Origin: Deltaproteobacteria bacterium
Lineage (GTDB): Bacteria; Myxococcota_A; Polyangia; JAAYKL01
Direction of reading: 5' to 3'
DNA: 64,000 nt
Assembly (NCBI GenBank): GCA_030595125.1
Contig: JAUVDV010000022.1
Location: 3,064-67,063, forward strand
Shown here in pieces: positions 24,886 through 39,014 of this stretch. Position 1 is the first letter of the stretch. Each line of letters opens with the position of its first letter. The notes beneath the pieces were generated by a model. The model saw only the letters and a list, made by a program, of their open reading frames with translations, made no database searches and was not told the origin of the DNA. A program made the position numbers and the translations under genes.

Positions 24886-25887
24886 ATGACATTGAAAAAC
24901 TCAAACCTTTTGCTCTTGGTCGTCTTGTCCTTTTGCAGCCTCGGAGCGGATATGAAGGGTTGCGAGGGGATGGAGGGCGATTCACCGTTCGAACTCGAAG
25001 AGGACCGTCCGTTTGACGGCATCGTCAACGGCGAGGAAACGAACTACGAATCCTTCACCGGGGTGATCGGGCTCTATTACTCGCTGGGAACATCCGGAGC
25101 CATGTGCACGGGGACTCTCATTGATCCACGGGTCATCCTCACTGCAGGACATTGCGTCTACGGCCCGAGCGACGGGATAGACGCGACCGCCAATCCCAGC
25201 AATCTCATGATTCTGGGCGGCCCCGATCTGAGCGACCAGGCAAACGTAATCTACTACCCCGATGTGGAGGAGGTCGTGAAACACCCGGAATGGGAGGGGC
25301 AGATTACTTACACCTCGGTAGACCTGGCGATGATAAAGCTCAAAGAACCGCTGACCACCACGGAGATGTACAGGGTACGCGAAACCGACGACTTCGACAC
25401 AGGCACCACCGGCAAGATCGTCGGGTACGGTCTGTCGAGCTCGGCGGATCAGAATAGCTCCGGCATACACCGGATGGGCGACACGCAGGTACAGAACAAG
25501 CTGGAACACTACATCAACCTGGGAGATCCGGCGGGAACGTGCTCGGGCGATTCGGGTGGGCCGTTCTTCACGATGGTGGACGGTTTCTGGCAGGTCACCG
25601 GCGTCACGTCTCTGGGGCTATCCGGCGAATGCGACCCGACCACCGGTAATGTGGACGTGAACGTGGTGATGAAGCGCAGCTGGGTGGACGACACCATGAA
25701 CTCTTTCGTCGGCTACGGTCTGGCGGACGTTCCCCACGATGACGGAACCGATACTGATACTGACGTTGATGGCGGGATCTCCGCCGACGCCGGCTCCGGC
25801 GTCTCCAGCCCCGACGACGGATGCGGGTGCTCGTTGACCGGCGGATCCGGTCATACCGCGAGCCTTCTCACTACGATCTTCGGCTGA
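24886..25887 (+). CDS. Secreted trypsin-like (S1) serine protease with Thr/Asp-rich linker and Cys-Gly-Cys hydrophobic C-terminal tail
   Basis: Signal peptide. Catalytic motifs TAGHC (His), D in DLAMIKL region, GDSGGP (Ser). C-terminus DGTDTDTDVDGG ... DDGCGCSLTGGSGHTASLLTTIFG-stop. Confidence 0.8.
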   Translation: MTLKNSNLLLLVVLSFCSLGADMKGCEGMEGDSPFELEEDRPFDGIVNGEETNYESFTGVIGLYYSLGTSGAMCTGTLIDPRVILTAGHCVYGPSDGIDATANPSNLMILGGPDLSDQANVIYYPDVEEVVKHPEWEGQITYTSVDLAMIKLKEPLTTTEMYRVRETDDFDTGTTGKIVGYGLSSSADQNSSGIHRMGDTQVQNKLEHYINLGDPAGTCSGDSGGPFFTMVDGFWQVTGVTSLGLSGECDPTTGNVDVNVVMKRSWVDDTMNSFVGYGLADVPHDDGTDTDTDVDGGISADAGSGVSSPDDGCGCSLTGGSGHTASLLTTIFG

Positions 25888-26032
25888 GAGCGTGCGGGAA
25901 ATCACCACAACCGAGTAGGCAAATCCGACGAATTCGCCAAATCACCTGATTTCTAAGGTGAAAATTATCTAGGATAAATTCACAATCTTGTTATTATTCA
26001 GCCGTCAAGAGAACGGAAAAAAAGGTGGTAAG

Positions 26033-26164
26033 ATGGTTACTTTGACTTTTGTAGCCCTGATTTTGTTTTTTTTCCTGCTCGATTTTTTCGTGATCCACAA
26101 GCTGGAACATCTCCTGGAAAAAGCGAAAGAGACGCCCGGTGACGACGCGAAGAAGGAGGAGTAG
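26033..26164 (+). CDS. Candidate 43-aa single-TM small protein upstream of the FeS/NrfD/cytochrome operon
   Basis: ATG with AGGTGG RBS. Hydrophobic core VALILFFFLLDFFVI then charged tail. Too short for the ORF track. Its 3' end carries the RBS of the next gene. Confidence 0.3.
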   Translation: MVTLTFVALILFFFLLDFFVIHKLEHLLEKAKETPGDDAKKEE

Positions 26165-26170
26165 GACTTC

Positions 26171-26947
26171 ATGGCAATCAAAAGCTCTGGCCTGCTCATT
26201 GACATAACCCGGTGCATAGGATGCGGGGCCTGCTCGGACGCCTGCAAAGAGATAAACGACCTTCCACCGGAAATCGACGACAAGCTCACGGCCGAGACCT
26301 GGACCGTTGTCCGGGAAAAGGACAATGATCTCCATGTCCGCGATCTCTGCCGCCACTGCGTCGAGCCCGCGTGCGTGGCATCGTGTCTAGTGGCCGCGCT
26401 CACAAAGACCGAGCACGGCCCGGTAATATACGACAAATCCGTCTGCATCGGCTGCCGTTACTGCATGGTCGCCTGCCCGTTCCAGGTTCCGTGTTTCGAG
26501 TGGCATTCCCCCAATCCCCGGATTCGCAAGTGCATCTTGTGTGAGCCGCGCGTGCGCGAAGGAAAGAGCACCGGCTGCGCAGAGGCGTGCCCCACCGAGG
26601 CCACGGTCTTCGGCGATCGCGAGACATTGGTGGAGATGGCAAGAGCGCGAATAAAGGCCGACCCAAAGCGGTATCACGACCATATCTACGGTCTCGATGA
26701 GGTCGGCGGAACCGCCGTGATGTTCCTGTCGCCGGTCCCTTTCGAGGATCTCGATTTCAACACCGACCTGGTCAATTATCCACTATCGGACATCACCTGG
26801 AATATCCTTCGGCAAGTGCCCACTATAGTGGCCGGGGGCGCGGTATTCCTGGGCGCCAGCTACTGGCTGTTCAACAGACGCGAGAAAGTAAAACAGGCCG
26901 AGCAAGTGGTCGGACCAGGGCCCAAAAAGGAGGCGGACGATGTTTAG
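26171..26947 (+). CDS. Periplasmic 4Fe-4S ferredoxin-type subunit (NrfC/HmcB/PsrB-like) with C-terminal TM anchor
   Basis: Four Cys clusters (CIGCGACSDAC, CRHCVEPAC, CIGCRYCMVACP, CILCEPR...CAEACP). C-terminal hydrophobic segment. Confidence 0.85.
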   Translation: MAIKSSGLLIDITRCIGCGACSDACKEINDLPPEIDDKLTAETWTVVREKDNDLHVRDLCRHCVEPACVASCLVAALTKTEHGPVIYDKSVCIGCRYCMVACPFQVPCFEWHSPNPRIRKCILCEPRVREGKSTGCAEACPTEATVFGDRETLVEMARARIKADPKRYHDHIYGLDEVGGTAVMFLSPVPFEDLDFNTDLVNYPLSDITWNILRQVPTIVAGGAVFLGASYWLFNRREKVKQAEQVVGPGPKKEADDV

Positions 26948-28073
26948 ATCGGCCGTCAAATTAATAACGCCGTGGCGCCTGATCATGGCGGCATTCCTGG
27001 CAACCGGCGCGGTGCTCGTGTTTTTCAGGTTCACCCGTGGCCTGGGCTCGATAACCAACCTGAGCGATCAGACGCCCTGGGGCATGTGGGTCGGGTTCGA
27101 TATCCTGGCCGGCATCGGCCTCGCGGCCGGCGGTTTCGTGATGGCGGCTGCGGTCTACGTGTTCAACCTCAAGAAATATCGGCCCATTGTGCGGATGGCA
27201 ATTCTGACCGCGCTGCTGGGCTATATTATCTTCATCGTCGGCCTGATCCTCGAGGTCGGCCGGCCCTGGAACATGTGGCGCGTGATAACCAACCCAAACA
27301 TTCACTCGCCCCTGTACGAAGTCTCCCTGTGCGTGATGGCCTATACCATGGTGCTGTTTCTGGAGTTCTCCCAGGTCTTTTTCGAGAAGTTCGGATGGAA
27401 CCGCCTGATGGCCGTCTTTCACAGATTGAGCGTTATGCTCGTGATCCTGGGCGCACTGATCTCCACGTTGCATCAGTCAACCCTGGGCACGCTGTTCACA
27501 ATTGCGCCGAGCAAAATGCACCCGCTGTGGTACTCGCCGCTCTTGCCCGTTCATTTTTTCCTGTCGTGCATCGCGGCCGGCTTGGGCATGGTCTGCTTCG
27601 AGTCGTTCCTGAGCGAGCGTTTTCTCAAGCACCCGCCCCGAATGGATCTCCTGTCGCGGATCGCGAGGTTCATGGCCGTGATGCTGGTCGCGTACTTCAT
27701 CTTCAGGATAGGGGACCTGGCTGTTCGAGGAGTGATCGGTCTGGCGTTTACAGCCGGCTTTGCAGCGCTCCTCTTCTGGCTGGAAAATCTTCTGTTCGTG
27801 ATTCTCCCCATCATCATGGTGTTCCGCCGGGGTCTCAATATCGGCAGAACATCGCTGTTCATCGTTTCGTTTTCCGTGGTCCTCGGCTTTATCATGCACA
27901 GGTTCAACGTGGCGATCACGAGCTTTCAATTGGTCAAGGACGCCGGCTACTTCCCATCCTGGATGGAGTTCGTGGTAACGGCGTGCCTGATCTCGGCCGG
28001 GTTCATAGCAGCCGGTCTGGCGGTACATTTGCTGCCGGTGCACGGTGGGGAAACAGAGAAGTCCAAAAACTAG
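26940..28073 (+). CDS. NrfD/PsrC/HmcC-family integral membrane quinone-interacting subunit
   Basis: 377 aa, about 8-10 TM helices, N-terminal region typical of the NrfD family. Start overlaps the upstream stop. Confidence 0.85.
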   Translation: MFRSAVKLITPWRLIMAAFLATGAVLVFFRFTRGLGSITNLSDQTPWGMWVGFDILAGIGLAAGGFVMAAAVYVFNLKKYRPIVRMAILTALLGYIIFIVGLILEVGRPWNMWRVITNPNIHSPLYEVSLCVMAYTMVLFLEFSQVFFEKFGWNRLMAVFHRLSVMLVILGALISTLHQSTLGTLFTIAPSKMHPLWYSPLLPVHFFLSCIAAGLGMVCFESFLSERFLKHPPRMDLLSRIARFMAVMLVAYFIFRIGDLAVRGVIGLAFTAGFAALLFWLENLLFVILPIIMVFRRGLNIGRTSLFIVSFSVVLGFIMHRFNVAITSFQLVKDAGYFPSWMEFVVTACLISAGFIAAGLAVHLLPVHGGETEKSKN

Positions 28074-28091
28074 GACAAGGGAGCAATATCG

Positions 28092-28562
28092 ATGAAATTG
28101 GCAAGGATACGCGCAACCCTATCGGCGATAGCGGCTTTCGCGGTGCTCTCTTCCATTGCGATAGCCGGCGACCTGCCAGGCAAGATACAGATCAAGTCGC
28201 TCGAAAACCTCTACGGTCCCGCTGTCTTCGATCACAAGATGCACATCGACACGGCTGACAGTTGCAAGACGTGTCACCACAAGCCTTTCGGCAAGCCCAT
28301 GGGCTGCGGAGATTGCCACGAGGACACGTCCAAACTCGGCGCCTTCAACCACGAACAACACTGGGAATTCGACGACTGCGCGTCCTGCCATCGGGCAAAG
28401 TCGACCCACGAGTTGGCCTGCTCGAGTTGCCATCTGAATCCATACGATAAAAAACAGCTCCACGTTCCGGGCCTCAAGGGCGCGCTTCACGATCAGTGTA
28501 TGGGTTGCCACAAGGAAAACGGAGTTGAAAACTCCTGCACGACCTGCCACGTGAAAAAATAG
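28092..28562 (+). CDS. Periplasmic hexaheme cytochrome c (c3-like)
   Basis: Signal peptide. Six CxxCH motifs (CKTCH, CGDCH, CASCH, CSSCH, CMGCH, CTTCH) in about 130 mature residues. Confidence 0.85.
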   Translation: MKLARIRATLSAIAAFAVLSSIAIAGDLPGKIQIKSLENLYGPAVFDHKMHIDTADSCKTCHHKPFGKPMGCGDCHEDTSKLGAFNHEQHWEFDDCASCHRAKSTHELACSSCHLNPYDKKQLHVPGLKGALHDQCMGCHKENGVENSCTTCHVKK

Positions 28563-28602
28563 TAGGCTCTAAACAGGTCGCAACGATAGGAATGAGGACA
28601 TC

Positions 28603-30222
28603 TTGCGTATCCTGCAATCCAGCTTGGCCCTTCGGTTAATCCTTCCGCTGGCGTTTTTTATTGCCATTGTTTCAGGCGTCTACGGATTCGTCGACGCGCA
28701 TATTCAGGAAAAGCAGCTCATCGACGAGATGGTGCTCGGTGTCGACCAGCTCTCCCGAGGCATCACCAGCGCGACATGGCACGCCATGTTGTACGACCAG
28801 AGAGAAACCGCTTACACGGTGATGCGGACCATCGGCGAGAAACAGGGAATCGAGAGCATCCGGTTCTTCAACAAGGAAGGCCTGGTCACGTTCTCCACGG
28901 ATCCAAACGCCGCAAAGCAGGTCGACAAGAACGCGGAGGCCTGCTTCCTGTGCCACACCAGGGAACAGCCGCTCGTCAAGTTGGATATGCCCTCCAGGGC
29001 GCGGGTCTATCGCGGAATGGACGGGAGCCGCAAAGTCGCCATGGTGACCCCCATCTACAACGAACCCTCCTGCTCGGAAGCCAAGTGCCACGCACACCCG
29101 GGGGAGCAATCCGTACTGGGTGTTCTCGACATTACGATGAACGCGGATCAAGTGGATCGAGATGTGGCCGGTATCCAGATGCGCACCTTTGGCATGACGG
29201 TGATCCAGATTCTGCTGATAGTCGTCCTTGTTTACATCGTCTTGCGGCGATACGTCACGCACCCCATTCGCGGACTCATCAAATGGACAAAGAGCGTCGG
29301 CGGCATGGAGCCGTCCCGCCCCATCGATGTCAAGACCAGGGGCGAACTCGCCGAACTCGCCAGTTCTTTCAATTCAATGGGGGACCGTCTCAACGACGCC
29401 CATGCCGAGATAAGCGACTTTACAAGACATCTCGAGCAAAAGGTCGAGGAACGCACGCAACAGCTCTACCATACCCAGCAACGGCTCATCCAGAGCGATC
29501 GCCTGGCCTCCCTGGGGCAGCTCGCCGCAAGCGTGGCTCACGAGATAAACAACCCCATCGCCGGTGTGCTCAACTTCTCCGAGTTAATGAATCGCCTCAT
29601 CGGCGACCACGGGATCCCGGCCGGCCGGGAGAAAGACTTCAAACGTTACCTGACCATGATTTCCGAGGAGACCGCGCGGGTCGGGCGAATCGTCACCGAC
29701 CTTCTCACGTTCTCGAGGCGGCCGTCACCCCAGAGGGCCAAGATCGATCTGTGCGGCGTCATCAAGCACACGGTATCGCTGGTCATGCACAAGCTCGAGT
29801 TGGAGAGCATCAATCTCGTACTCGATCTGAATGGATCCCTGCCCGAGGTGTTGTGCGACGGCTCGCAGATACGGCAAGTGTTGATCAATCTCGTGATGAA
29901 CGCCTCCGAATCAATCTCCGGCGAGGGCACAATTACCGTGCACACGGCCCTGGCTCCGGATAACAACGGCGTGATCATCGAAGTGGCGGACACGGGCTCC
30001 GGCATACCCAAGGAAATCCTGTCCCGTATCTACGACCCCTTCTTCTCCACAAAGGAGGAGGGGAAAGGCGTGGGGTTGGGACTCGCGGTCGTGTACGGAA
30101 TCGTGGACGCACACGATGGAAGCATCACCGTTGAAAGCTCCGCCGACACCGGTACGACATTCAAGGTGTTCCTGCCAATCGAGAACACCGAATCCACGGT
30201 CGGCAACGGAATTGACCCGTGA
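28603..30222 (+). CDS. Sensor histidine kinase with periplasmic heme-c sensor domain (CxxCH + Cx4CH), HAMP, HisKA, HATPase_c
   Basis: TTG start with GAGGA RBS. Two TM helices flank a periplasmic region containing CFLCH and CSEAKCH. H-box AHEINNPIAG. N/G boxes near the C-terminus. Confidence 0.85.
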   Translation: MRILQSSLALRLILPLAFFIAIVSGVYGFVDAHIQEKQLIDEMVLGVDQLSRGITSATWHAMLYDQRETAYTVMRTIGEKQGIESIRFFNKEGLVTFSTDPNAAKQVDKNAEACFLCHTREQPLVKLDMPSRARVYRGMDGSRKVAMVTPIYNEPSCSEAKCHAHPGEQSVLGVLDITMNADQVDRDVAGIQMRTFGMTVIQILLIVVLVYIVLRRYVTHPIRGLIKWTKSVGGMEPSRPIDVKTRGELAELASSFNSMGDRLNDAHAEISDFTRHLEQKVEERTQQLYHTQQRLIQSDRLASLGQLAASVAHEINNPIAGVLNFSELMNRLIGDHGIPAGREKDFKRYLTMISEETARVGRIVTDLLTFSRRPSPQRAKIDLCGVIKHTVSLVMHKLELESINLVLDLNGSLPEVLCDGSQIRQVLINLVMNASESISGEGTITVHTALAPDNNGVIIEVADTGSGIPKEILSRIYDPFFSTKEEGKGVGLGLAVVYGIVDAHDGSITVESSADTGTTFKVFLPIENTESTVGNGIDP

Positions 30223-30797
30223 GCGTGATCTATCTTATTCGAGGTGTAGGAGTGGAAAATACGCTCATGGAAACCATTGCCGAATGCATCGAGAATATCA
30301 TCGGAGCGCCGGTGCACATGCTCGAAGACCTCGACGAGCCCATGGAGGCGTTCGTCGAAAAGCGCAATCAGTGGGATTCCTCGGTCATCCTGCGAGCACT
30401 GATAGACATGGCGCCGCCCGACGCCCTGCGCGTGCTCGGCGTGACTTCCCGCGATCTCTGCGTCCCGGTCCTGACCTTTGTCTTCGGGCAGGCCCAGCTG
30501 GACGGCCTGGTATCGATAATCTCGACCGCCCGCCTCAAGCCAGAATTTTACGGCCTCTCGGCGTCCCCCGACCTGACGCTCGAACGCGCCTGTAAAGAGT
30601 CGATCCACGAGTTGGGGCATACTTTCGGTCTGGTGCACTGCGGCGATCGTTCGTGCGCCATGTCCCTTTCTACCCACGTGGGCGATGTAGATATCAAAAA
30701 AGCGGAGTTCTGCCGGGGATGCCGGTCATTCCTCCGCGATCGAGTTACGGCGGCGCTCGCCGACGAGAGCCGCCCCGGAAGGGAGAAACAGCTGTGA
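30219..30797 (+). CDS. amzA: Archaemetzincin-like zinc metallopeptidase (peptidase M54 signature HExxHxxGxxHCxxxxCxM ... CxxC)
   Basis: HELGHTFGLVHCGDRSCAMS ... CRGC matches the archaemetzincin motif recalled from the M54 family. Overlaps the kinase stop (4 nt) and the regulator start (GTGA). Confidence 0.7.
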   Translation: MSVIYLIRGVGVENTLMETIAECIENIIGAPVHMLEDLDEPMEAFVEKRNQWDSSVILRALIDMAPPDALRVLGVTSRDLCVPVLTFVFGQAQLDGLVSIISTARLKPEFYGLSASPDLTLERACKESIHELGHTFGLVHCGDRSCAMSLSTHVGDVDIKKAEFCRGCRSFLRDRVTAALADESRPGREKQL

Positions 30798-32149
30798 ACA
30801 AGATGTGGAAGATCCTCGTTGTTGACGACGAACTCATCATGAGGGAGTCGCTGGCCGCATGGCTGATGGAAGACGGTTACACGGTTGACACCGCGGCCTC
30901 GGGCCAGGAGGGGGTGGAGCTGGCGAAGAAAACCGAATACACAATCTACTTCGTCGACCTCAAGATGCCCGGAATCGACGGCATCGAAACCATGACGCAA
31001 ATCCACAAGCTCCATCCGGACGCGGCGGTCATCATAATCACCGCCTTCGCCACCGTGGACACGGCCATCACCGCGATGAAGGAAGGCGCACAGGAATACG
31101 TCGTCAAGCCGTGCAGCCCCCAGGAGATATCGCTCATCGTCGAGCGTATCATTCACCTGGAAAACCTGGAGCGGGAAAACAAAATTCTGCGAAAGAAGCT
31201 CAACGATCGGTACACATTCCACGACATCATCAGCAAGAACCCCAAGATGCACGAGCTGTTCGCCCTCGTGAACGACGTGGCAAGCCTCAAGAGCACCGTG
31301 CTCATACAGGGTGAGAGCGGCACTGGAAAAGATCTCATCGCAAAGGCCATACACCAGTCAAGCGACCGCTCCGAACAACGGTACGTGGCGATCTCGTGCG
31401 CCGCCCTCGCCGAGACCTTGCTCGAATCGGAGCTCTTCGGGCACGAACGAGGGGCGTTCACCGGCGCGGTGAACCAGAGCAAGGGCAAGTTTGAGACCGC
31501 CGACGGAGGGACGCTCTTCCTCGACGAGATCGGCGGCATATCGCCCAAGCTCCAGGTGGACCTGCTCAGAGTGCTCCAGGAGCGATCCTTCTACCGAGTG
31601 GGTGGTTCCAAGGAAGTCTCCGTGAACGTGCGCGTGATCGCGGCGACCAACGCGGATCTGATGACAGCCGTGCGCGACGGATCGTTTCGTGAAGATCTGT
31701 ACTACCGGCTGAACGTGATCAACATTCACATTCCGCCGCTTCGAGATCGGCTGGAGGATATTCCCTTACTCGTACGTCATTTCATAGAGCGCATCTCCTT
31801 CGAGCTGGGCAAGTCCGTGAGCGGAGTGACGGACGGAGCGATCGCGCGGCTAATGAACCATCAGTGGCCGGGGAACGTCCGGGAGTTGGAAAACAGCATC
31901 GAACGAGCCATCGTGACCTGCCACGACGGCGTGCTGACAGAGGAGAGCCTCTCCTTCCTGGATGGAGACCAAGGCGAAGAAGAAGGGGCGATGATTCCCG
32001 GAGATATGAGCCTCGCCGATCTTGAATTGAGGGCCATCAAGGCTACCCTTGGCCGCACTTCGGGCAATGTCAAGGAAGCCGCTTCGATCCTCGGCATCGA
32101 TCGATCCACGCTTTATGACAAATTGAAACGCTACAATCTCCGCCGTTAA
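30794..32149 (+). CDS. Sigma-54-dependent response regulator (REC + AAA+ sigma-54 activator + Fis-type HTH), NtrC family
   Basis: REC domain with phospho-Asp (VDLKMPGIDG). Walker A GESGTGK. GAFTGA sigma-54 contact motif. C-terminal HTH. GTG start overlapping the upstream stop (alternative ATG 30803). Confidence 0.9.
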   Translation: MNKMWKILVVDDELIMRESLAAWLMEDGYTVDTAASGQEGVELAKKTEYTIYFVDLKMPGIDGIETMTQIHKLHPDAAVIIITAFATVDTAITAMKEGAQEYVVKPCSPQEISLIVERIIHLENLERENKILRKKLNDRYTFHDIISKNPKMHELFALVNDVASLKSTVLIQGESGTGKDLIAKAIHQSSDRSEQRYVAISCAALAETLLESELFGHERGAFTGAVNQSKGKFETADGGTLFLDEIGGISPKLQVDLLRVLQERSFYRVGGSKEVSVNVRVIAATNADLMTAVRDGSFREDLYYRLNVINIHIPPLRDRLEDIPLLVRHFIERISFELGKSVSGVTDGAIARLMNHQWPGNVRELENSIERAIVTCHDGVLTEESLSFLDGDQGEEEGAMIPGDMSLADLELRAIKATLGRTSGNVKEAASILGIDRSTLYDKLKRYNLRR

Positions 32150-32282
32150 ACCGGGTTCTGCTCTTTGCGTGTAGGAAATCGCGACACCCCCGTGGGCAAA
32201 ATCCGACACTATAATCGCTTCCCCCAAAGCCAGATTCCCTAACAGTAAGAAATTATACAGAAATTTGAGAGTCGCGATATCC

Positions 32283-32297
32283 GGCACGGAGGTTGCA
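32283..32297 (+). promoter_or_regulatory. Sigma-54 promoter (-24 GGCACG / -12 TTGCA with 4-nt spacer)
   Basis: cGGCACG-gagg-TTGCA matches consensus TGGCACG-N4-TTGCW at all conserved positions except the first T. About 60 bp upstream of start 32358. Two TCGCGA palindromic cores at 32179..32184 and 32272..32277 could be activator sites. Confidence 0.5.
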
Positions 32298-32357
32298 TTG
32301 CCTTCAATCCGAAACGCGTCGCAATAACGGCAACGCACAAACCCTGTGGAGGATGGT

Positions 32358-32675
32358 ATGTTGGATTTGACAAGTATCGAAGCGTTTTTAACTTCGATGG
32401 TTTCATTTAAATCGGACGAAATATGGTTCGTAATGACGAACCTGGCCCTGGTGTTGGCTTGCCTGGCTTGCTTCGCGATTTTCGCGGTCGCCATTATCAA
32501 AGAGGTCTTCCTTCGTGGCAGAGCACGAGTCGCCTCCGGCATGGCCACGGATATGCACATTCTCCATGAGCCCGCGCTCGGAGTCACGATGGCGGACGGC
32601 GGCGAGCCGGAAGGCGAAGACGTTGACACCGATCTCGATTCAAAGAACAGCGAGACCGCACCGACCAATGAATAA
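32358..32675 (+). CDS. Small membrane protein (one TM, acidic C-terminal tail), hypothetical
   Basis: GGAGGA RBS 4 nt upstream of ATG 32358. TM NLALVLACLACFAIFAVAII. Stop overlaps the next gene start (ATGAATAA). Confidence 0.4.
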   Translation: MLDLTSIEAFLTSMVSFKSDEIWFVMTNLALVLACLACFAIFAVAIIKEVFLRGRARVASGMATDMHILHEPALGVTMADGGEPEGEDVDTDLDSKNSETAPTNE

Positions 32676-33615
32676 CGATACAACAACAAAGTGTCCTTTC
32701 TTGAAGGACACCGTTGTTCGCTACTGCGAGGTGTCGCCGATCAGAAAATTACTTCCGATCGACGCGATAAGCGAGGAAGACCAGCGGTGCTTGAGCAACA
32801 AATACACATCGTGCGATGCCGCGCGCGAGCACCTGAACGGCTTGCAGGAGCTCGACCGGTGCCCGTTCCTTCATACCGCTGTGATGAGTAACTGCTCCGC
32901 AGCCCCGGGGGCCAAGCCCGTACCCAAAAACAACTCGGTCACGTCACGGTGCAACAGTAGTGCCTACCTCTTCTGCGACACTTATCTCAGAATGAGAAAC
33001 GGCGCGATCGGCGAACGAAAAAAAGATATTGACCAATCGATCATCGAGGGGATAGAGGTTCCTATGCACCTCGCCTACTCGATGAACCACATGTGGCTCG
33101 ATACGAGGGAGGATGGGGTCATTCATGTGGGCGTCGACGCTTTCCTCGCCCGAGTGCTAGGTGAGGTGGAGCAGGTGCAGTTCAATTTCGGCAAAAATGG
33201 AAAGAAGCCGGCGGTCTTGCTTCGTACGCAAGGCATGGACTTGTACCTCGTTTTTCCAGGACACCTCGAAGTAACCGAAACCAACAGATCACTCACAAAG
33301 AACCCCCGGAAGCTGCTGGAAGATCCTTACAGTGGTGGATGGTTGTTCGAGTCCATACCACCGCCGGGATTTCCCAGTCACCCGACCCCGGTATCCGGCT
33401 TGATAGGCGGAAAGATGGCAACGGACTGGATGCGCAGCGAGATAGAACGCATGAACGGATTCATCCACGATTTACCTTCTCGACAATCTCAGGGAAGCGA
33501 ACGCCTGGCGGCCGACGGCGGCACGTTCCACGAAGGGTTCGCTCAATTTCTCGATCAACGTGATTTCTATTACATGCACAACATGTTCTTCACGGCTAAC
33601 GAAAACCATAGGTGA
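32668..33615 (+). CDS. Two-domain protein: N-terminal Cys-rich region (two CPFL..C motifs) + C-terminal glycine-cleavage-H-protein-like domain apparently lacking the lipoyl-lysine
   Basis: The C-terminal part aligns by eye with GcvH (NHMWLDTREDGVIHVGVDAF ... DLYLVFPGHLEVTETN ... DPYSGGWLFE). The position equivalent to the lipoyl-Lys reads RT. Family alignment is from memory. Confidence 0.55.
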   Translation: MNNDTTTKCPFLKDTVVRYCEVSPIRKLLPIDAISEEDQRCLSNKYTSCDAAREHLNGLQELDRCPFLHTAVMSNCSAAPGAKPVPKNNSVTSRCNSSAYLFCDTYLRMRNGAIGERKKDIDQSIIEGIEVPMHLAYSMNHMWLDTREDGVIHVGVDAFLARVLGEVEQVQFNFGKNGKKPAVLLRTQGMDLYLVFPGHLEVTETNRSLTKNPRKLLEDPYSGGWLFESIPPPGFPSHPTPVSGLIGGKMATDWMRSEIERMNGFIHDLPSRQSQGSERLAADGGTFHEGFAQFLDQRDFYYMHNMFFTANENHR

Positions 33616-34211
33616 TTTTGACGCGGCGTCGGACGACAATTTTATTCTTTATCATCGGCCTGGTCGTCGCCATGCTCGCCGGATGGATCGCTGTGCCCGC
33701 AGCGCTCTACGAGTCCATCGAACAACCCCTCGGATTCAGTCATGTGGTTCATACATCCGATGATACAGGGATGGTATGCGATGACTGTCATCATCTCACT
33801 TCAGAAGGCGGTTTCGCCGGCATTCCCAAAATAGCCGTCTGCGAAGGTTGTCATGCGGAGGCAATAGGGACAAGCAAGGACGAACTCAGGCTGGTGGAGG
33901 AATACGTAAAACCCGGCCGCGAGATCCCCTGGCTCGTATACGCGCGCCAGCCCGACAACGCGTTTTTTCCACACGTTCGACATACCCGGCTGGCAAAGAT
34001 TCCCTGCGAGCAATGCCACGGCGACCACGGAAAAACGGAGACTCTGCGACCACTGAAACGCAACCGCTTCACGGGATACAGCCGCGATATTTGGGGACAC
34101 GATTTTTCGGGGATCACGACGTCCCCTCCCAACAGCATGAAGATGTCGGATTGTGTAGATTGTCATCGAAAACGAGGAGTGCGGGACAGTTGTCTCGCGT
34201 GTCACAAGTGA
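33612..34211 (+). CDS. Membrane-anchored pentaheme cytochrome c (ActA/QrcA-like)
   Basis: N-terminal TM. Five CxxCH motifs (CDDCH, CEGCH, CEQCH, CVDCH, CLACH). Confidence 0.85.
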   Translation: MILTRRRTTILFFIIGLVVAMLAGWIAVPAALYESIEQPLGFSHVVHTSDDTGMVCDDCHHLTSEGGFAGIPKIAVCEGCHAEAIGTSKDELRLVEEYVKPGREIPWLVYARQPDNAFFPHVRHTRLAKIPCEQCHGDHGKTETLRPLKRNRFTGYSRDIWGHDFSGITTSPPNSMKMSDCVDCHRKRGVRDSCLACHK

Positions 34212-34220
34212 AATATTGAA

Positions 34221-36386
34221 ATGGGATTTTCTGTAAAACGACGAGATTTCCTGGGGCTTATCGGCGGTGGAGCCATCGGTGCGGCGCTGAGTCCGGCTCC
34301 GTGGAAGTCCCTCGACGACGTTGCGATCTGGACTCAGAACTGGTCCTGGAAACCTCGGTTGCCTCGGGGGCCCGTTGAAGTTGCATTCACCCACTGCGGC
34401 CTGTGCCCCGCCGGATGCGGCCTGAAAGTTCGCTCTGTTGGAGGAAGCCCGGTCAGTGTCCACGGCGTGCCGGGCCATCCCCTGAGTGCCGGATTCGTGT
34501 GCGCCCTCGGTCTCGCAGGGAGATACCTCTCGTATCATCCTTCACGCATCGTGGAGCCAACCGTTGTCGGCACTGACGGGCAGCGGCGAGGTATTCCGTT
34601 CAAGGCTGCGGTGCGACAATTGGGAAAATGGTTGGATGAGGCCCGTTCCGGGGGCGGCCACGGTTCGGTGGCTATTCTCGACAACCGCCCCGATCGAATG
34701 CGTTCGCTCGCTTATCGCAAATGGCTCGGCGCCCTTGACGGTGTTCACGTCAAGGGTCTTCGGGAAGATGCTCCAATCAATCGGCTTCGCGCCATGCTCG
34801 ATGGCCAGGTGCCCGAATTGGGGCTGGATATCGCTCGCGCTCGAACGGTTCTCAGCTTCGGGGCGCCGGTTCTCGAAGGCCTCGGATCCGGTGAAGCCGG
34901 CTCTCGATTACGCGGCCGATCGGGCACCGAGAAACCTTACATCGTACAGATCGAGACGCGACCGTCGCGCACCGCGCACAGCGCCGACCTCTGGCTGCGT
35001 ATCGCCCCGGGCACCGAAACGGTGCTGGCTCTGGGGTTGGCCAACATTCTCGTCTCCGAGGGTCTGTACGACAAGGAGATCATCGGCCGGACGGCTCTCG
35101 ATCTCGATGGGCCCGGTGGATATCGGGAACTTGTCGCCCGGTTCTCTCCAAAACAGGTGGCCCGGATTACAGGAATCGATGCCGCAACGATCAAGAAGGT
35201 GGCTCGCCGCTTCGCCTCCGGGCCGGCGGTGGTGATTCCGGGTGTCGATCCGGGAGGTGGCCCCCTGAGCCCCGAGGCACAGACCGCTGCATTCAGCTTG
35301 AGCTTGCTCAACGGAGATGTCGGACGCCCCGGAGGGGTTGTAGCCAGGCGGGTTTCCGAGACCATACAGCTTCCCGGAACGGCCCAACTCGCTAACACCG
35401 TCGAGCTTGCCGATGTTCCGGACGGCTCGATACGGTTGTTGATCGCAGACGGTATCGCCGGGGGTTGCGCCATGCCTACCTCCTTGCTGAAGCGCAAACT
35501 CAACCCATCCGAAGGGCGGGTTGTGAGCCTATCCCCGTTCGAGAGATCGGCCATGCACGAAGCGGACCTTGTCCTTCCTTCAACAACGCCGTTCGAAAGC
35601 ATCGACGAGACGGGAGTGCCCATCGATTCTCCGGTCGACTCCATGGGATTGACAGTACCATCCATGCGAGCCCCGGATTACTCGGTAGATTCGTTGCATG
35701 TGCTTTCCATGGTGACAAAATCGAATGTTCCCAAAATCACCGAACTGCTGCGTAGCCGTTCAGATCGGATCCATGCGGGCGGGCGGGGCTCGGTGTTTGA
35801 TCCCTCAAAGGGCGAGAGCGCACCGATTACGGAGTTCAAAACTGCCGGACACCTCTGGCGCGCGCTCCTGGACGGCGGTTTGTGGACAGATTCATCGGCT
35901 ACTTTCACATGCCCACCCTTCCGACTGATGGGCGCTGACGCCGCTATTCGCGATCGCCTCCACAAAGTCCTGGAACAACCGTCGACGGCGGATGGATGGG
36001 CGCATGAACTCGTTCTCATGCCGTTCGGCTGGCGAGACGCGCCAGGAGATGGGCCGCTTCCTCCCGTCATGGCCAAGTTGTTCCGCGAAACGAGGTTGAG
36101 ACTCGACTCCCGGTTTGCAACCATTTGTCCCGGGACAGCCAAAGATCTGGGATTTGCGGAAGGGGACAAGGCGTCGATCAAGACTTCGCTCGGCTCCATC
36201 ACCGTGGAGGTTGTGCTGGATCCCGCAGTGGCGAACGGCGTGGTTCACGTGGCTGTAGGCCCGTCGACAGGAGCTTTCGGCGATGCCACCCGCGAAAAGG
36301 GGGACCAACCATTGGATCTTCCATCGTGCAAAAACGATGATTGCTGGCGAGTGATCCCGGCCAAAATGCTCGAGGTGGTGTCATGA
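34221..36386 (+). CDS. TAT-exported molybdopterin-oxidoreductase-family subunit (ActB1/QrcB-like) with N-terminal CxxCxxxC...C FeS motif
   Basis: Twin-arginine motif KRRDFLGLIGGGAIGAA. HCGLCPAGCGL ... FVCALG cluster motif. 721 aa. Confidence 0.85.
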   Translation: MGFSVKRRDFLGLIGGGAIGAALSPAPWKSLDDVAIWTQNWSWKPRLPRGPVEVAFTHCGLCPAGCGLKVRSVGGSPVSVHGVPGHPLSAGFVCALGLAGRYLSYHPSRIVEPTVVGTDGQRRGIPFKAAVRQLGKWLDEARSGGGHGSVAILDNRPDRMRSLAYRKWLGALDGVHVKGLREDAPINRLRAMLDGQVPELGLDIARARTVLSFGAPVLEGLGSGEAGSRLRGRSGTEKPYIVQIETRPSRTAHSADLWLRIAPGTETVLALGLANILVSEGLYDKEIIGRTALDLDGPGGYRELVARFSPKQVARITGIDAATIKKVARRFASGPAVVIPGVDPGGGPLSPEAQTAAFSLSLLNGDVGRPGGVVARRVSETIQLPGTAQLANTVELADVPDGSIRLLIADGIAGGCAMPTSLLKRKLNPSEGRVVSLSPFERSAMHEADLVLPSTTPFESIDETGVPIDSPVDSMGLTVPSMRAPDYSVDSLHVLSMVTKSNVPKITELLRSRSDRIHAGGRGSVFDPSKGESAPITEFKTAGHLWRALLDGGLWTDSSATFTCPPFRLMGADAAIRDRLHKVLEQPSTADGWAHELVLMPFGWRDAPGDGPLPPVMAKLFRETRLRLDSRFATICPGTAKDLGFAEGDKASIKTSLGSITVEVVLDPAVANGVVHVAVGPSTGAFGDATREKGDQPLDLPSCKNDDCWRVIPAKMLEVVS

Positions 36387-37150
36387 CGAAAACCACCACC
36401 CAAAAGCGATACGGCATGGTGATCGATATTGATCGCTGCGACGGTTGCGGAGCGTGCATGGTGGCCTGCTCTCTGGAGAATAACGTTTCTGTCGTTCCTC
36501 CGGAGGCCGGTCTTCATCGTGGCCTCACCTGGATACGCGTCTACAGCATAACGAACGAAAAGGAATATCCTCATAGTGATACTGCCTACCTGCCGGTCAG
36601 TTGCCAACATTGCGGCAACGAGACTCCATGCGTAGGTGTCTGCCCACAGAGTGCGGTGGATGTGGATCCCAAAAACGGAATAGTGAGCCAGATTCCCGAG
36701 CGCTGCATGGGATGTCGTTACTGCATGGTTGCCTGCCCGTACCACGCCAGATATTTCAACTGGTGGGATCCCGTCTGGCCGGAGGGCACGGAACATCTGC
36801 TAAATCCCGGGGTTACTCCACGCATGAGAGGCGTCGTAGAGAAATGCAACTTCTGCCACGGCCGACATCATGCTGCGCAGGAGCGCGCGGCGAGCGAGGG
36901 GCGCTCGGAGATCGAACCAAACGAGTATCAAACCGCCTGCGCCGAGGCTTGCCCGAACGGCGCAATCACCTTCGGCGACCTCGCAGACAAGGACAGTGAA
37001 GTGGCCAAGCTGGCCGCCGGCCCCGAGTCGTTTCAACTCCTCAAGACACTGGGCACCGGGCCCAAGGTGTACTACCTGACGCAACGAAGCTGGGTTCGAG
37101 ACATGGCGGCCAAGACGCCTCTACCTCTGGATGGGCAGTCTAATGATTGA
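36383..37150 (+). CDS. 4Fe-4S ferredoxin-type subunit (ActB2/QrcC-like)
   Basis: ATG overlapping the upstream stop (ATGA). Cys clusters CDGCGACMVAC, CQHCGNETPCVGVCP, CMGCRYCMVACP, CNFCHGR ... CAEACP. Confidence 0.85.
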   Translation: MTKTTTQKRYGMVIDIDRCDGCGACMVACSLENNVSVVPPEAGLHRGLTWIRVYSITNEKEYPHSDTAYLPVSCQHCGNETPCVGVCPQSAVDVDPKNGIVSQIPERCMGCRYCMVACPYHARYFNWWDPVWPEGTEHLLNPGVTPRMRGVVEKCNFCHGRHHAAQERAASEGRSEIEPNEYQTACAEACPNGAITFGDLADKDSEVAKLAAGPESFQLLKTLGTGPKVYYLTQRSWVRDMAAKTPLPLDGQSND

Positions 37151-38363
37151 ACCCCTTACCAACAGAGCCCCTACTCGTGTGTTTCTGACGTGGATCGGTT
37201 TTTGGATTGCGCTCTTCGCGATCGGTGGCTATTTCGGCATGCTCTGCCTGTCGCAAGGCCTTCATCACACAAACATGAACAACCGGTTTGGTTTCGGCAT
37301 CTGGATTTTCCTGGATCTGACCGTGATAGCGCTCGGAGCGGGAGCCTTCTTCTCCGCCTTCTTGCTGTACATTCTCAAGAAGCAGGCATTGAAAGATGTT
37401 ATCGGCAGCGCGGTTGTCCTGGGTTTCATCTGTTACAGCGGAGCAGTAGTGGTGCTTGCCATCGACGTGGGGCAACCGCTTCGTGCCTGGTTCACCTTCT
37501 GGCATCCCAACGCTCACTCCATGCTCGCCGAGGTCACATTCTGCCTCACACTGTACCTGCTGGTGCTGGCCATCGAGTATGTTCCGCTGATACTCAAGAA
37601 CCCAAGTCTCTCCAAAAATGTATCCCTTCTGGTATTCGAGGGACAGCTGCACAAGGTGGTTGTCGTCTTCGCCGGAGTAGGCGCCATCCTCTCATTCTTT
37701 CATCAAGGCTCCCTCGGCGGCCTGTACGGCGTCATGAACGGTCGCCCGTTCGCATTTCGGGAACATTTCTTCATCTGGCCCTCCACGTTCTTTCTCTTCA
37801 TTCTTTCGGCCATCGCTGCGGGCCCGTCGTTCCTGATTCTCATAAACAAGCTCGCCTCGAAGATCTCCAAAAAGCAACTCGTGAGGAAAGAAGCCTACGA
37901 TTTCCTGGGCCGAATATCGGGCTGGTTGCTTCTGGCCTATGTGGGGCTGAAATCGGCGGACACTATCGTGTGGATCAACCACACCGCTCCGGGCTCAGGC
38001 TATTCGGTCGCCGAGTTTTTCAAGGAGGCCTCTTTCGGCACGTGGATCCTGTTCGCGGAGATCGTACTCTTTGGTCTGTTGCCTGCGCTCGTTCTCATAA
38101 ATGACCGCCTGCGGAAACGCCCCTTGTTGATGATAGTCGCTCCCCTGTTGGTATGCATCGGGATTGCGATCAACCGCTATGTCATGACGCTTCAGAGTCA
38201 GTCGCTGCCCACTTTGCCGTTCGAGGAGTTCGTGCTGTATACGCCGAGCCTGGTGGAAATCGGCGTCTTTGGAGGGATGATCTCATACGGTGTAATTGTT
38301 TTTTCGCTTTCGTACCGTTACTTGCCCCTGTACCCGGGCTTGCGGCAAAAAGCGAAAACGTAG
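37131..38363 (+). CDS. NrfD-family integral membrane subunit (ActC/QrcD-like)
   Basis: 410 aa polytopic membrane protein of NrfD type. Alternative start 37143 gives the ATGATTGA stop-start overlap. Confidence 0.85.
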   Translation: MGSLMIEPLTNRAPTRVFLTWIGFWIALFAIGGYFGMLCLSQGLHHTNMNNRFGFGIWIFLDLTVIALGAGAFFSAFLLYILKKQALKDVIGSAVVLGFICYSGAVVVLAIDVGQPLRAWFTFWHPNAHSMLAEVTFCLTLYLLVLAIEYVPLILKNPSLSKNVSLLVFEGQLHKVVVVFAGVGAILSFFHQGSLGGLYGVMNGRPFAFREHFFIWPSTFFLFILSAIAAGPSFLILINKLASKISKKQLVRKEAYDFLGRISGWLLLAYVGLKSADTIVWINHTAPGSGYSVAEFFKEASFGTWILFAEIVLFGLLPALVLINDRLRKRPLLMIVAPLLVCIGIAINRYVMTLQSQSLPTLPFEEFVLYTPSLVEIGVFGGMISYGVIVFSLSYRYLPLYPGLRQKAKT

Positions 38364-38375
38364 AGGAGGTAAGCC

Positions 38376-39014
38376 ATGTTACCAGGAATGTACGAATTTC
38401 ATTTTGAACTCGGTCATATCATATTCCTCGGAGGATTCATGACCATCGGCGCCGTGATCGGCGCTACGCTTCTCATCACGTTATTTCGCTCAACCAGGAT
38501 TGTCACCGTGCCCGGCGGGGCGAAAGAAAACGCGGAGGGCGACCTGCATCACGTGGGCCACACGCTCCTGCGGCCCCTGGCGGGCGGAACCTTGAAAATC
38601 TCGCTCGACGACCTGGGAACACGGCTGCTCGGCAGGCCGGACAGGATGCGACTTCCCGAGATCGGACAACGGATTACGGAGGGGACGGACGCCGTGAAAC
38701 TGTGGCGCGAGCAATCTGCAGCTACAATCGTTGCTCCGGTGTCCGGGACCGTCGTTGCGACAGGGGGCCACGACGACAAGTGGTACCTGCGCGTTCTCCC
38801 GGACGCGACGCCGGTCGAAGGCGGAAGCCTGATGGGCGCCGCCAAAGTCAGATCGTGGCTCACGTCGGAAATCGACAAGCTCCAGGCTATCCTTTCTTCG
38901 AAGGATCTCGGCCTCGCCATGGCGGACGGTGGAGAGCCGCTCCCGGATTTGCCCTCGGCCGTTCCGGACGCCGACTGGCAGAAGATCTACTCGGAGATGT
39001 TTCAGAACAGCTAG
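38376..39014 (+). CDS. Membrane-anchored protein with H-protein-like (hybrid-barrel) domain lacking lipoyl-Lys; possible fifth subunit of the complex
   Basis: TM IIFLGGFMTIGAVIGATLLITLF. Segment AATIVAPVSGTVVATGGHDDKWYLRVLP resembles the GcvH C-terminal region (SDIYAPVSGEVVEVN ... DPYGxGWL). The Lys position reads Q. Confidence 0.5.
   Translation: MLPGMYEFHFELGHIIFLGGFMTIGAVIGATLLITLFRSTRIVTVPGGAKENAEGDLHHVGHTLLRPLAGGTLKISLDDLGTRLLGRPDRMRLPEIGQRITEGTDAVKLWREQSAATIVAPVSGTVVATGGHDDKWYLRVLPDATPVEGGSLMGAAKVRSWLTSEIDKLQAILSSKDLGLAMADGGEPLPDLPSAVPDADWQKIYSEMFQNS

Follow-up and report, generated by a model that had tools for sequence, protein, structure and literature searches.

A conserved histidine kinase, archaemetzincin and sigma-54 activator cassette beside a Qrc-like operon in a deltaproteobacterial genome

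Two-component systems of the NtrB/NtrC type may carry a third component, as in ZraPSR, and related activators may be regulated by a partner protein, as in PspF-PspA. We know of no described two-component system with a cytoplasmic metzincin as a component. An arrangement of this kind is present in a 64,000-nucleotide stretch of DNA, here termed the window, from a Deltaproteobacteria bacterium (assembly GCA_030595125.1, contig JAUVDV010000022.1, positions 3,064 to 67,063, forward strand). In it, a gene for an archaemetzincin of peptidase family M54 (the protein is called M54 below) lies between the genes for a histidine kinase and an NtrC-type sigma-54 activator, upstream of a Qrc-like respiratory operon. 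A search of full-text literature for archaemetzincin or M54 in connection with histidine kinases, two-component systems or sigma-54 systems gave no description of such a cassette, and one on sigma-54 control of qrc gave nothing relevant; a paper on the Desulfovibrio sigma-54 regulome mentions neither qrc nor a peptidase. Each component of the locus is of a known kind, but the combination, the operator and a Cache-heme sensor with two motifs appear to be undescribed.

The closest described protein pair is CarD-CarG of Myxococcus xanthus. CarG has the archaemetzincin His/Cys motif with a change of the glutamate to glutamine, binds two zinc atoms and displays neither protease activity nor DNA binding (PMC8156234; PMC3427221). 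The carG gene is translationally coupled to carD, and the tight CarG-CarD complex acts as one regulatory unit (PMC8156234). In the structural papers, the natural substrates and physiological role of archaemetzincins are stated as unknown, and triggered opening of the cleft or oxidation of the Cys4 site was proposed by the authors for archaeal AmzA (PMC3427221). On the sensor side, the sCache_heme family consists of Cache folds in which a short helix inserted before the last strand carries a strictly conserved CXXCH (2026 preprint, PMC12889525). Signalling members of this family behave as sensors of nitric oxide (NO) and not of O2, and stand-alone members have redox-type properties or roles (PMC12889525).

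A preliminary description of the window, made from the sequence alone, identified the three genes as encoding a heme-c histidine kinase, an archaemetzincin and an NtrC-type activator with stop-start overlaps; Pfam and NCBIfam scans agree with these identities. The listing of open reading frames (ORFs), combined with the family scans, gives three translationally coupled genes at 28603-32149 (Table 1). Both junctions are 4-nt GTGA overlaps, provided that the activator begins at GTG 30794, the start in the public gene call for the identical contig L001; an alternative ATG start is found at 30803. The protease embedded between kinase and regulator had been termed unusual. It is, instead, integral to a cassette found in about 80 loci of many phyla, and the kinase-M54-activator set is a conserved signalling cassette and not an oddity.

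Conservation was determined by scanning one genome per species with an M54 alignment. At least about 600 stretches matched, 592 relatives were confirmed, and the best 80 were analysed by comparison with the window proteins by tblastn. A search for other two-component operons containing M54, suggested in the preliminary description, was productive: a sigma-54 activator adjoins M54 in 79 of the 80 loci, and 71 loci have a kinase whose periplasmic sensor is homologous to that of the window (35-67% identity). The nine kinase exceptions are mostly contig edges or kinases with a different sensor. Acidobacteriota are represented by Bryobacterales, Terriglobia, Sulfotelmatobacter, Vicinamibacteria, Thermoanaerobaculia and Holophagales. 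Other loci are from Bacteroidota, Ignavibacteria, Kryptoniota, Eisenbacteria, KSB1, Verrucomicrobiia and Gemmatimonadota, and further ones from Eremiobacteraceae, Fibrobacteraceae, Cloacimonadota, Deferrimicrobiaceae, Thermodesulfobacteriota and Myxococcales. Two metagenome-assembled genomes of Deltaproteobacteria (loci L002 and L003) have an M54 that is 94-95% identical to that of the window and the same gene order. With start codons picked by rule, and many of the loci being metagenome bins, 53/70 junctions of kinase and M54 and 58/77 of M54 and activator allow a 4-nt NTGA overlap. From the single window alone, it might be supposed that the peptidase gene came between kinase and regulator by chance, or that it is a housekeeping gene unrelated to them; the approximately 80 loci from many phyla and the conserved 4-nt overlaps contradict this, and the idea is given next to no credence.

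M54 stays with the activator in loci where the kinase is missing or the genes are ordered differently. Four loci (L023, L060, L065 and L080, the last on a contig that starts at M54) display M54-activator with no kinase gene directly upstream, and the order kinase-activator-M54 is found in L064 and in a second module of L045. The paralogous L045 module, at about 4000-6302, is directly 5′ of the principal cassette, which has the order kinase-M54-activator. Sensors of this family also occur outside the cassette: distant homologues of about 30% identity (L084 and L086) belong to kinases that are beside aldehyde oxidoreductase genes and are without M54. In L085, a kinase with a 37%-identical sensor follows the same Hmc-like genes as in the window, with neither a sigma-54 activator nor M54; its partners are receiver-GcvH-like fusion proteins. 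Apparent fusions, in database proteins, of M54 to HATPase_c, AAA_lid or cytochrome sequences (P0036, P0203, P0209, P0295, P0303) were considered as Rosetta-stone evidence and rejected, as they look like frameshift or gene-call artefacts; they confirm adjacency only. In one long-read assembly (L020), the kinase itself is split across frames.

The archaemetzincin scores 81.8 bits on Pfam PF07998 (cutoff 24.4) and 154.8 bits on NCBIfam NF033823 (cutoff 145), and aligns end to end with solved AmzA structures, i.e. 2x7m of Methanopyrus (E 1.8e-27) and 3zvs of Archaeoglobus (E 7e-25). The catalytic and zinc-finger motif, HELGHTFGLVHC-x4-C-x-M-x16-CxxC, is intact at residues 130-168 (30606-30722). 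Its first part, HELGHTFGLVH (residues 130-140), is invariant in an alignment of 28 sequences and aligned to 2x7m and 4axq, and the Cys4 and Met-turn residues C141, C146, M148, C165 and C168 are all present. The HExxHxxGxxHC motif, on which the earlier identification depended, is thereby found on careful alignment to AmzA structures. M54 is predicted to be catalytically intact. The family is large, with 4097 representatives at E below 1e-3. Among 269 close relatives and 50%-cluster representatives, 252 (~94%) display the full HExxHxxGxxHCx4Cx[MLAIF] motif, and the catalytic glutamate is replaced in just one motif-bearing relative. Retention of glutamate and Met-turn in 252/269 therefore points to selection for catalysis. 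The spacing is x16 and not x17 in 244 of the 252 sequences with a matching segment. A signal peptide and a membrane or hydrophobic segment were looked for in the M54 protein and neither was found, and a periplasmic substrate is excluded for this reason. The earlier proposal that the protease processes a periplasmic component is abandoned on this basis and in view of the end-to-end match to soluble AmzA.

The main alternative to proteolysis is that M54 works as CarG does, as a non-proteolytic, zinc-bound cofactor that modulates assembly of the activator, or its contact with RNA polymerase, by binding; within this alternative the Cys4 zinc finger might be a cytoplasmic redox switch. Homology is consistent with such a role (the M54 of the window scores 92.9 bits on NF033824, the model for CarG, with E 1.9e-26 and a cutoff of 250 that it does not reach), as is the CxM-x16-CxxC spacing, which is common to the M54 clade and CarG (PMC8156234). 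The coupling of CarG to a transcription factor gene, with formation of a tight complex that has no protease activity, provides a precedent (PMC8156234), and the inactivity of archaeal AmzA in vitro, with Cys4 oxidation proposed as a regulatory route, fits as well (PMC3427221). CarG has HQxxH, however, whereas the window protein reads HELGH, with no CarG-type replacement, and the M54 clade keeps the full motif almost throughout. The CarG-like role is thus considered improbable. Hydrolysis by M54, of the activator or of another cassette component, is the reading preferred here, and it is held tentatively, with rather more doubt than belief.

The regulatory architecture, consisting of kinase, activator, tandem operator, -24/-12 promoter and Qrc-like operon, is regarded as highly probable. 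The activator comprises a receiver (30812-31138; Response_reg, E 5e-29), an AAA+ domain (31226-31729; Sigma54_activat, E 1e-70) and HTH_8 (32009-32134; E 4e-13), and GAFTGA is read in the translation. The operator was found by aligning the regions 5′ of the small gene that follows on their best -24/-12 element. Its consensus is tGTCGGGAAAtyCCGACa, with the core GTnGG-N5-CCnAC, and it consists of 15-bp inverted repeats whose copies start 21-22 bp apart across loci. In the window, the two sites (32171-32185 and 32192-32207) start 21 bp apart and are 112 bp 5′ of the -24 GG. They form the only such tandem pair in the 64 kb, with 0.2 expected in shuffles. The same tandem motif is found 5′ of the homologous operon in 14 loci, and in seven loci of Acidobacteriota type the distance from operator to -24 element is 80-83 bp. 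A raw scan of all loci for tandem pairs was noisy (23 compared with 17 in shuffled sequence), and only the 14 pairs 5′ of the operon for the small protein and GcvH-like protein, with 21-22 bp spacing, carry meaning.

Two TCGCGA palindromes had previously been viewed as activator sites. The first core is inside operator site 1 by coincidence; it reads TCACGA in the 94%-identical relatives L002 and L003, and what distant loci share is GTnGG-N5-CCnAC. The second, beside the -24 element, is shared with these two close relatives alone and is absent from distant loci. The conserved operator is the GTnGG-N5-CCnAC tandem pair instead.

The near-consensus -24/-12 site of the preliminary description stands, and it is intergenic. 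With one mismatch to TGGCAC-N5-TTGCW, it is one of two sites in the 64 kb that have no more than that number and the only intergenic one, and it is invariant in L002 and L003. A genome-wide scan for such sites had also been suggested. Across the window, sites with two or fewer mismatches are not enriched (24 found, 25.7 expected); because of this, it is position and conservation that carry the case for the promoter. In 9 of the 14 loci the operator is followed by a -24/-12 element with a score of 9/12 or more, a level reached in 2.5% of random 160-nt pieces drawn from these loci. Transcription is expected to start near 32309. That the operator and promoter architecture recurs across phyla, and persists without an adjacent cassette, is strongly supported: L088 and L089 keep the tandem repeats with no adjacent cassette, and their sigma-54 promoters score 10/12 and 12/12.

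Several further features are found in these promoter regions. A hairpin, GCGTCGC-AATAACG-GCAACGC, is present at 32316-32336 in the predicted 5′ leader of the Qrc-like operon and is kept in L002 and L003 with one base change on the 3′ arm; an Rfam search of 25500-33500, which includes it, gave no match. In L039 and L056, which are of Bacteroidota type, candidate -24/-12 elements 5′ of the small gene read GGCAY-N5/6-TTGT and not TTGC. In L056 (at about 2749) and L071 (at about 6141, + strand), where the Qrc-like operon is divergent, the kinase gene too is faced by a sigma-54-like site, again with one mismatch, and one operator region may drive both operons.

The operon downstream had been described as ACIII/Qrc-like. 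The Qrc part of this holds, with QrcA above its cutoff and QrcB, QrcC and QrcD as best matches below theirs, and the ACIII part does not; by equivalog cutoffs the operon is classed as Qrc-like only and not as a full QrcABCD. The 105-amino-acid protein encoded by its first gene has one transmembrane segment (residues 20-54) and two conserved motifs, W..L.N.TN near the N-terminus and LGxTMADGG near the C-terminus, the latter predicted to be cytoplasmic. It is without family assignment. Homologues are present in L028, L046, L056, L068, L079, L082 and L087-L089, and in other phyla homologues head the operon. The 315-amino-acid GcvH-like protein displays a duplicated N-terminal CPFL...C...P.[KR]K..P motif and has 111 homologues, mostly of 287-320 amino acids. 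Both GcvH-like proteins of the operon presumably lack the lipoyl-lysine, from a reading by eye against the GcvH motif.

Genes of this operon type are near the cassette in 60 of the 80 loci: 43/80 have the Qrc-like operon beside it, and a further 17/80 have GcvH-like genes only. Relative to the cassette, the operon is mostly convergent (gene calls of L082 and L087), in tandem in the clade of the window, and divergent in L028, L056 and L071. In L088 and L089, which were found via the GcvH-like protein, the operon is present with no cassette within 10 kb. In L088 (16472-19919; Thermoanaerobaculia), the operon is beside genes of CysN/CysC, CysD and APS-kinase type, which belong to sulfate activation. 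A fusion of receiver and GcvH-like domains at 9968-10843 of L085 suggests that the GcvH-like domain serves the same signalling pathway as an output or as a partner. In L060 (7402-11491), M54-activator is followed by a CPFL-motif protein and three ORFs, with no Qrc genes. By eye these ORFs look NuoE/NuoF/Fe-S-like, and the last, of 436 amino acids, ends in a GcvH-like region. The regulon may thus differ between lineages while the GcvH-like element stays.

These gene associations bear on a further possibility for M54, i.e. that it matures or processes one of the products of the regulated operon and is encoded with the regulators only for co-expression. Candidate substrates would be the LGxTMADGG tail of the small membrane protein, whose predicted cytoplasmic location agrees with the idea, or the GcvH-like proteins. 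GcvH-like genes do accompany M54-activator even where kinase and Qrc genes are absent (L023, L060, L065, L080), and the L085 fusion ties the GcvH-like domain to the signalling pathway. Yet M54 is never within the structural operon in the loci examined, 20/80 loci keep M54 with the two-component genes and no such operon nearby, L088 and L089 have the operon with no adjacent cassette, and the 4-nt overlap couples M54 to the activator gene. Both the processing role and the candidate substrates named for it are considered quite improbable, and action of M54 on the activator or another cassette component is preferred.

The kinase sensor approaches a second known family. The protein consists of a transmembrane segment at about residues 3-34, a Cache-type sensor (35-189), a second transmembrane segment (190-222), and then HAMP, HisKA and HATPase_c. 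Both heme-type motifs are periplasmic, as the preliminary description had them, because they fall in the stretch bounded by hydrophobic segments 3-34 and 190-222, ahead of HAMP. The second, CSEAKCH (residues 157-163), is Cx4CH and not CxxCH. The CxxCH at 114-118 is kept in 65/70 sensor orthologues and C157-x4-C162-H163-x-H165 in 70/70, within a nearly invariant block, PIYNExxCSxAxCHAHP. In an AlphaFold2 model of the sensor (predicted local distance difference test 86.6), a five-stranded alpha/beta domain is preceded by a long helix at the N-terminus and followed by a transmembrane helix at the C-terminus. In the model, Cx4CH is in a helix (155-158) ahead of the last strand (171-180), which is the position of the sCache_heme motif, and the CxxCH helix (114-118) is in a separate insertion, a loop of lower confidence. 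Foldseek with the model finds the WalK Cache (E 5.6e-06), GSU0935 (3b42; E 1e-05), KinD, DctB and CitA. A sequence profile of the sensor matches 3b42 with E 1.5e-04 when HAMP is included and 0.021 for the sensor alone, and the profile alignment pairs Cx4CH with the CQSCH heme motif of GSU0935. It is strongly supported that Cx4CH occupies the heme-binding position of sCache_heme sensors such as GSU0935, GSU0582 and Tll0287, and the CxxCH at 114-118 is likely to be an extra heme c site. The sensor has the extracytoplasmic location and single Cache fold of sCache_heme, with a Pfam score that stays below threshold; its relatives score 26-33 bits on PF21563, the Pfam model built on Geobacter heme sensors, reaching or approaching the threshold.

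As to the signal, the sensor hemes would either follow how reduced the periplasmic cytochrome pool is or act as the binding site of a small ligand. One alternative holds that nitric oxide or another diatomic ligand, and not redox state, is what is sensed; it concerns the signal only. The finding that sCache_heme domains fused to signalling modules behaved as NO, not O2, sensors argues for it (2026 preprint, PMC12889525), and the Cx4CH of the window is at the same structural position as the motif of those sensors. The window family differs, however, in its second conserved heme motif and its Cx4CH variant, redox sensing fits the context of periplasmic multiheme cytochromes and a cytochrome c:menaquinone oxidoreductase-like complex, and redox roles have been assigned to stand-alone sCache_heme members (PMC12889525). 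The diatomic ligand is considered unlikely, though a substantial share of belief is kept for it, and sensing of cytochrome pool redox is retained in what follows.

The kinase gene had been taken as the start of a transcription unit. It starts 40 nt 3′ of the gene for a six-CxxCH cytochrome c, and a scan of + strand intergenic positions between window genes for sigma-70 promoters and terminators gave no match, the gap between cytochrome c and kinase included. The kinase is therefore probably not the start. The cassette here is probably the tail of a longer operon starting near 26033, and the HmcB-like, HmcC-like and cytochrome c genes are probably co-transcribed with the kinase. The 43-amino-acid ORF that begins this operon is nearly invariant in L002 and L003. 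A weaker tandem operator-like pair is present 5′ of the ORF and the Hmc-like genes, and the second of its sites, GTAGGCAAATCCGAC, is a perfect single site at 25915. The region is kept in L002 and L003, with an equivalent pair in L002. This weaker copy 5′ of the operon that contains the cassette suggests possible autoregulation. The pair comes directly after the stop of the preceding gene, and a conserved inverted repeat, TCACCT-N8-AGGTGA, is found between the pair and the 43-amino-acid ORF, at 25942-25961. In the window, the segment 25893-25961 has neither a sigma-54 nor a sigma-70 consensus.

Table 1. Features of the window, in order of position
Feature	Coordinates	Strand	Basis or remarks
Weaker tandem operator-like pair: GCGGGAAATCACCAC, with GTAGGCAAATCCGAC 22 bp further on	25893..25930	+	sequence scan
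43-amino-acid hydrophobic ORF with ribosome-binding site, first gene of upstream operon	26033..26164	+	read from sequence
HmcB-like Fe-S protein	26171-26947	+	Pfam; NCBIfam HmcB 262 bits, below cutoff
HmcC/NrfD-like membrane protein	26940-28073	+	Pfam; NCBIfam HmcC 301 bits, below cutoff
Cytochrome c with six CxxCH motifs	28092-28562	+	Pfam
Histidine kinase, 539 amino acids, TTG start	28603..30222	+	HAMP, HisKA, HATPase_c domains
CFLCH, kinase residues 114-118	28942..28956	+	CxxCH in short helix inserted between Cache-fold strands
CSEAKCHAH, kinase residues 157-165	29071..29097	+	Cx4CH-x-H in short helix before last beta strand
Archaemetzincin, peptidase M54, cytoplasmic, 192 amino acids	30219..30797	+	Pfam, NCBIfam, structure alignment
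Sigma-54 enhancer-binding response regulator (NtrC family)	30794..32149	+	Pfam domains
Tandem operator (upstream activating sequence), GTAGGAAATCGCGAC + GTGGGCAAAATCCGAC	32171..32207	.	motif alignment and scan
Predicted sigma-54 promoter, CGGCACGGAGGTTGCA	32282..32297	+	-24 GG at 32283-4, -12 GC at 32295-6
105-amino-acid single-pass membrane protein, first gene of regulated operon	32358..32675	+	public gene call in L001
GcvH-like protein, 315 amino acids	32668..33615	+	Pfam GCV_H, E 2e-07
QrcA-like	33612-34211	+	NCBIfam 208.9, cutoff 180, passes
QrcB-like	34221-36386	+	NCBIfam 251.8, cutoff 440, below
QrcC-like	36341-37150	+	NCBIfam 355.2, cutoff 400, below
QrcD-like	37131-38363	+	NCBIfam 534.4, cutoff 570, below
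Terminal 212-amino-acid ORF	38376-39014	+	homologous to weakly GCV_H-like last operon gene elsewhere

The best overall explanation, which is favoured by a small measure, is that the conserved three-gene cassette controls the Qrc-like respiratory operon. Upon a signal at the sensor hemes, the kinase would phosphorylate the activator, which would assemble on the tandem sites and open the sigma-54 promoter; the small membrane protein, the GcvH-like protein and the QrcABCD-like genes would be induced. M54, made in step with its neighbours through the stop/start overlaps, would bind the activator and cleave it or a bound partner, and in this way set or reset the output. M54 and activator would then represent a catalytically active counterpart of the Myxococcus CarD-CarG pair. 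A more general hypothesis, speculative and unlikely as it stands, is that bacterial archaemetzincins of the M54 clade are dedicated active partners of sigma-54 enhancer-binding proteins and form a protease-gated two-component switch. M54 might trim or remove an inhibitory receiver domain or destroy the active oligomer, and it could integrate the cytoplasmic redox state through its Cys4 zinc finger. If this were true, CarG would be a catalytically dead descendant of an ancestral partnership of M54 and activator.

A number of observations weigh against this account. With respect to M54, we infer its substrate or partner from gene context; CarG, the only characterised bacterial relative in the literature, works without proteolysis (PMC8156234), and archaeal AmzA displayed no activity on standard substrates in vitro (PMC3427221). 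The 80 loci cover those bacterial M54 proteins that are most similar to the query, and the 20 loci mentioned above have no Qrc-like or GcvH-like gene in the fetched flank. As for the promoters, the sigma-54 elements are weak in some loci (6-8/12), a scan of the Bacteroidota loci for a GG-N10-GC element was negative, the candidates picked by eye there reading TTGT at -12, and a -24/-12 element was looked for downstream of the 25893-25930 pair and none was found. The sensor of the window is below the Pfam thresholds (17.9 bits compared with 27 on PF21563, and 10.9 compared with 24.1 on PF11845) and has Cx4CH-x-H where sCache_heme sensors have a strictly conserved CXXCH. It is probably a divergent sCache_heme with two hemes, whose attachment we infer.

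The strict conservation of M54, translationally coupled beside the activator in many phyla, narrows the search for its partner to a few candidates, and the function of a bacterial archaemetzincin becomes experimentally testable in this context. Paludibaculum fermentans strain T20B24 (L024) is an isolate genome among the loci, and genetics may be feasible in it. The cassette also suggests an origin for CarG, a cofactor that is unusual in Myxococcus. Its sensor extends the recently described group of heme-binding Cache sensors by a variant with two motifs and probably two hemes, and for the Qrc-like operons of Acidobacteriota, Bacteroidota and other phyla a conserved regulon is defined together with its operator and sigma-54 promoter.

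Compared with known systems, the regulated operon resembles the menaquinone reductase QrcABCD of Desulfovibrio, in that QrcA-D are the best family matches and the gene order is the same. It differs in the addition of the small membrane protein and two GcvH-like proteins, in that only QrcA passes its cutoff, and in that this operon type is found far outside Desulfobacterota. With NtrB/NtrC-type systems the locus shares a kinase, a receiver-AAA+-HTH activator, tandem upstream sites, a -24/-12 promoter and an accessory protein; in contrast to ZraPSR and PspF-PspA, however, the accessory protein is a cytoplasmic metzincin encoded between kinase and activator. The sensor has in common with sCache_heme sensors (DUF3365/Tll0287; GSU0582/GSU0935) a single-Cache fold outside the cytoplasm, a short helix ahead of the final strand that bears a heme-c-type motif (Cx4CH-x-H here, CXXCH in that family), and fusion to signalling outputs, which in that family include HAMP-histidine kinases, but it has an extra conserved CxxCH in a second insertion.

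M54 shares its full length, catalytic motif and Cys4 zinc finger with archaeal AmzA (M. kandleri 2X7M; A. fulgidus 3ZVS/4AXQ), proteins made as soluble recombinant products, which differ in having x17 spacing where M54 has x16. The likeness to CarD-CarG is found in the two-zinc His/Cys motif, the x16 spacing and the coupling to a transcription factor gene. M54 keeps HExxH, whereas CarG has HQxxH. The partner of CarG, CarD, is an HMGA-type, RNA polymerase-binding protein that acts at promoters of extracytoplasmic-function sigma factors, whereas the partner of M54 is a two-component sigma-54 activator. CarG has been reported only in myxobacteria, whereas the cassette of the window spans many phyla.

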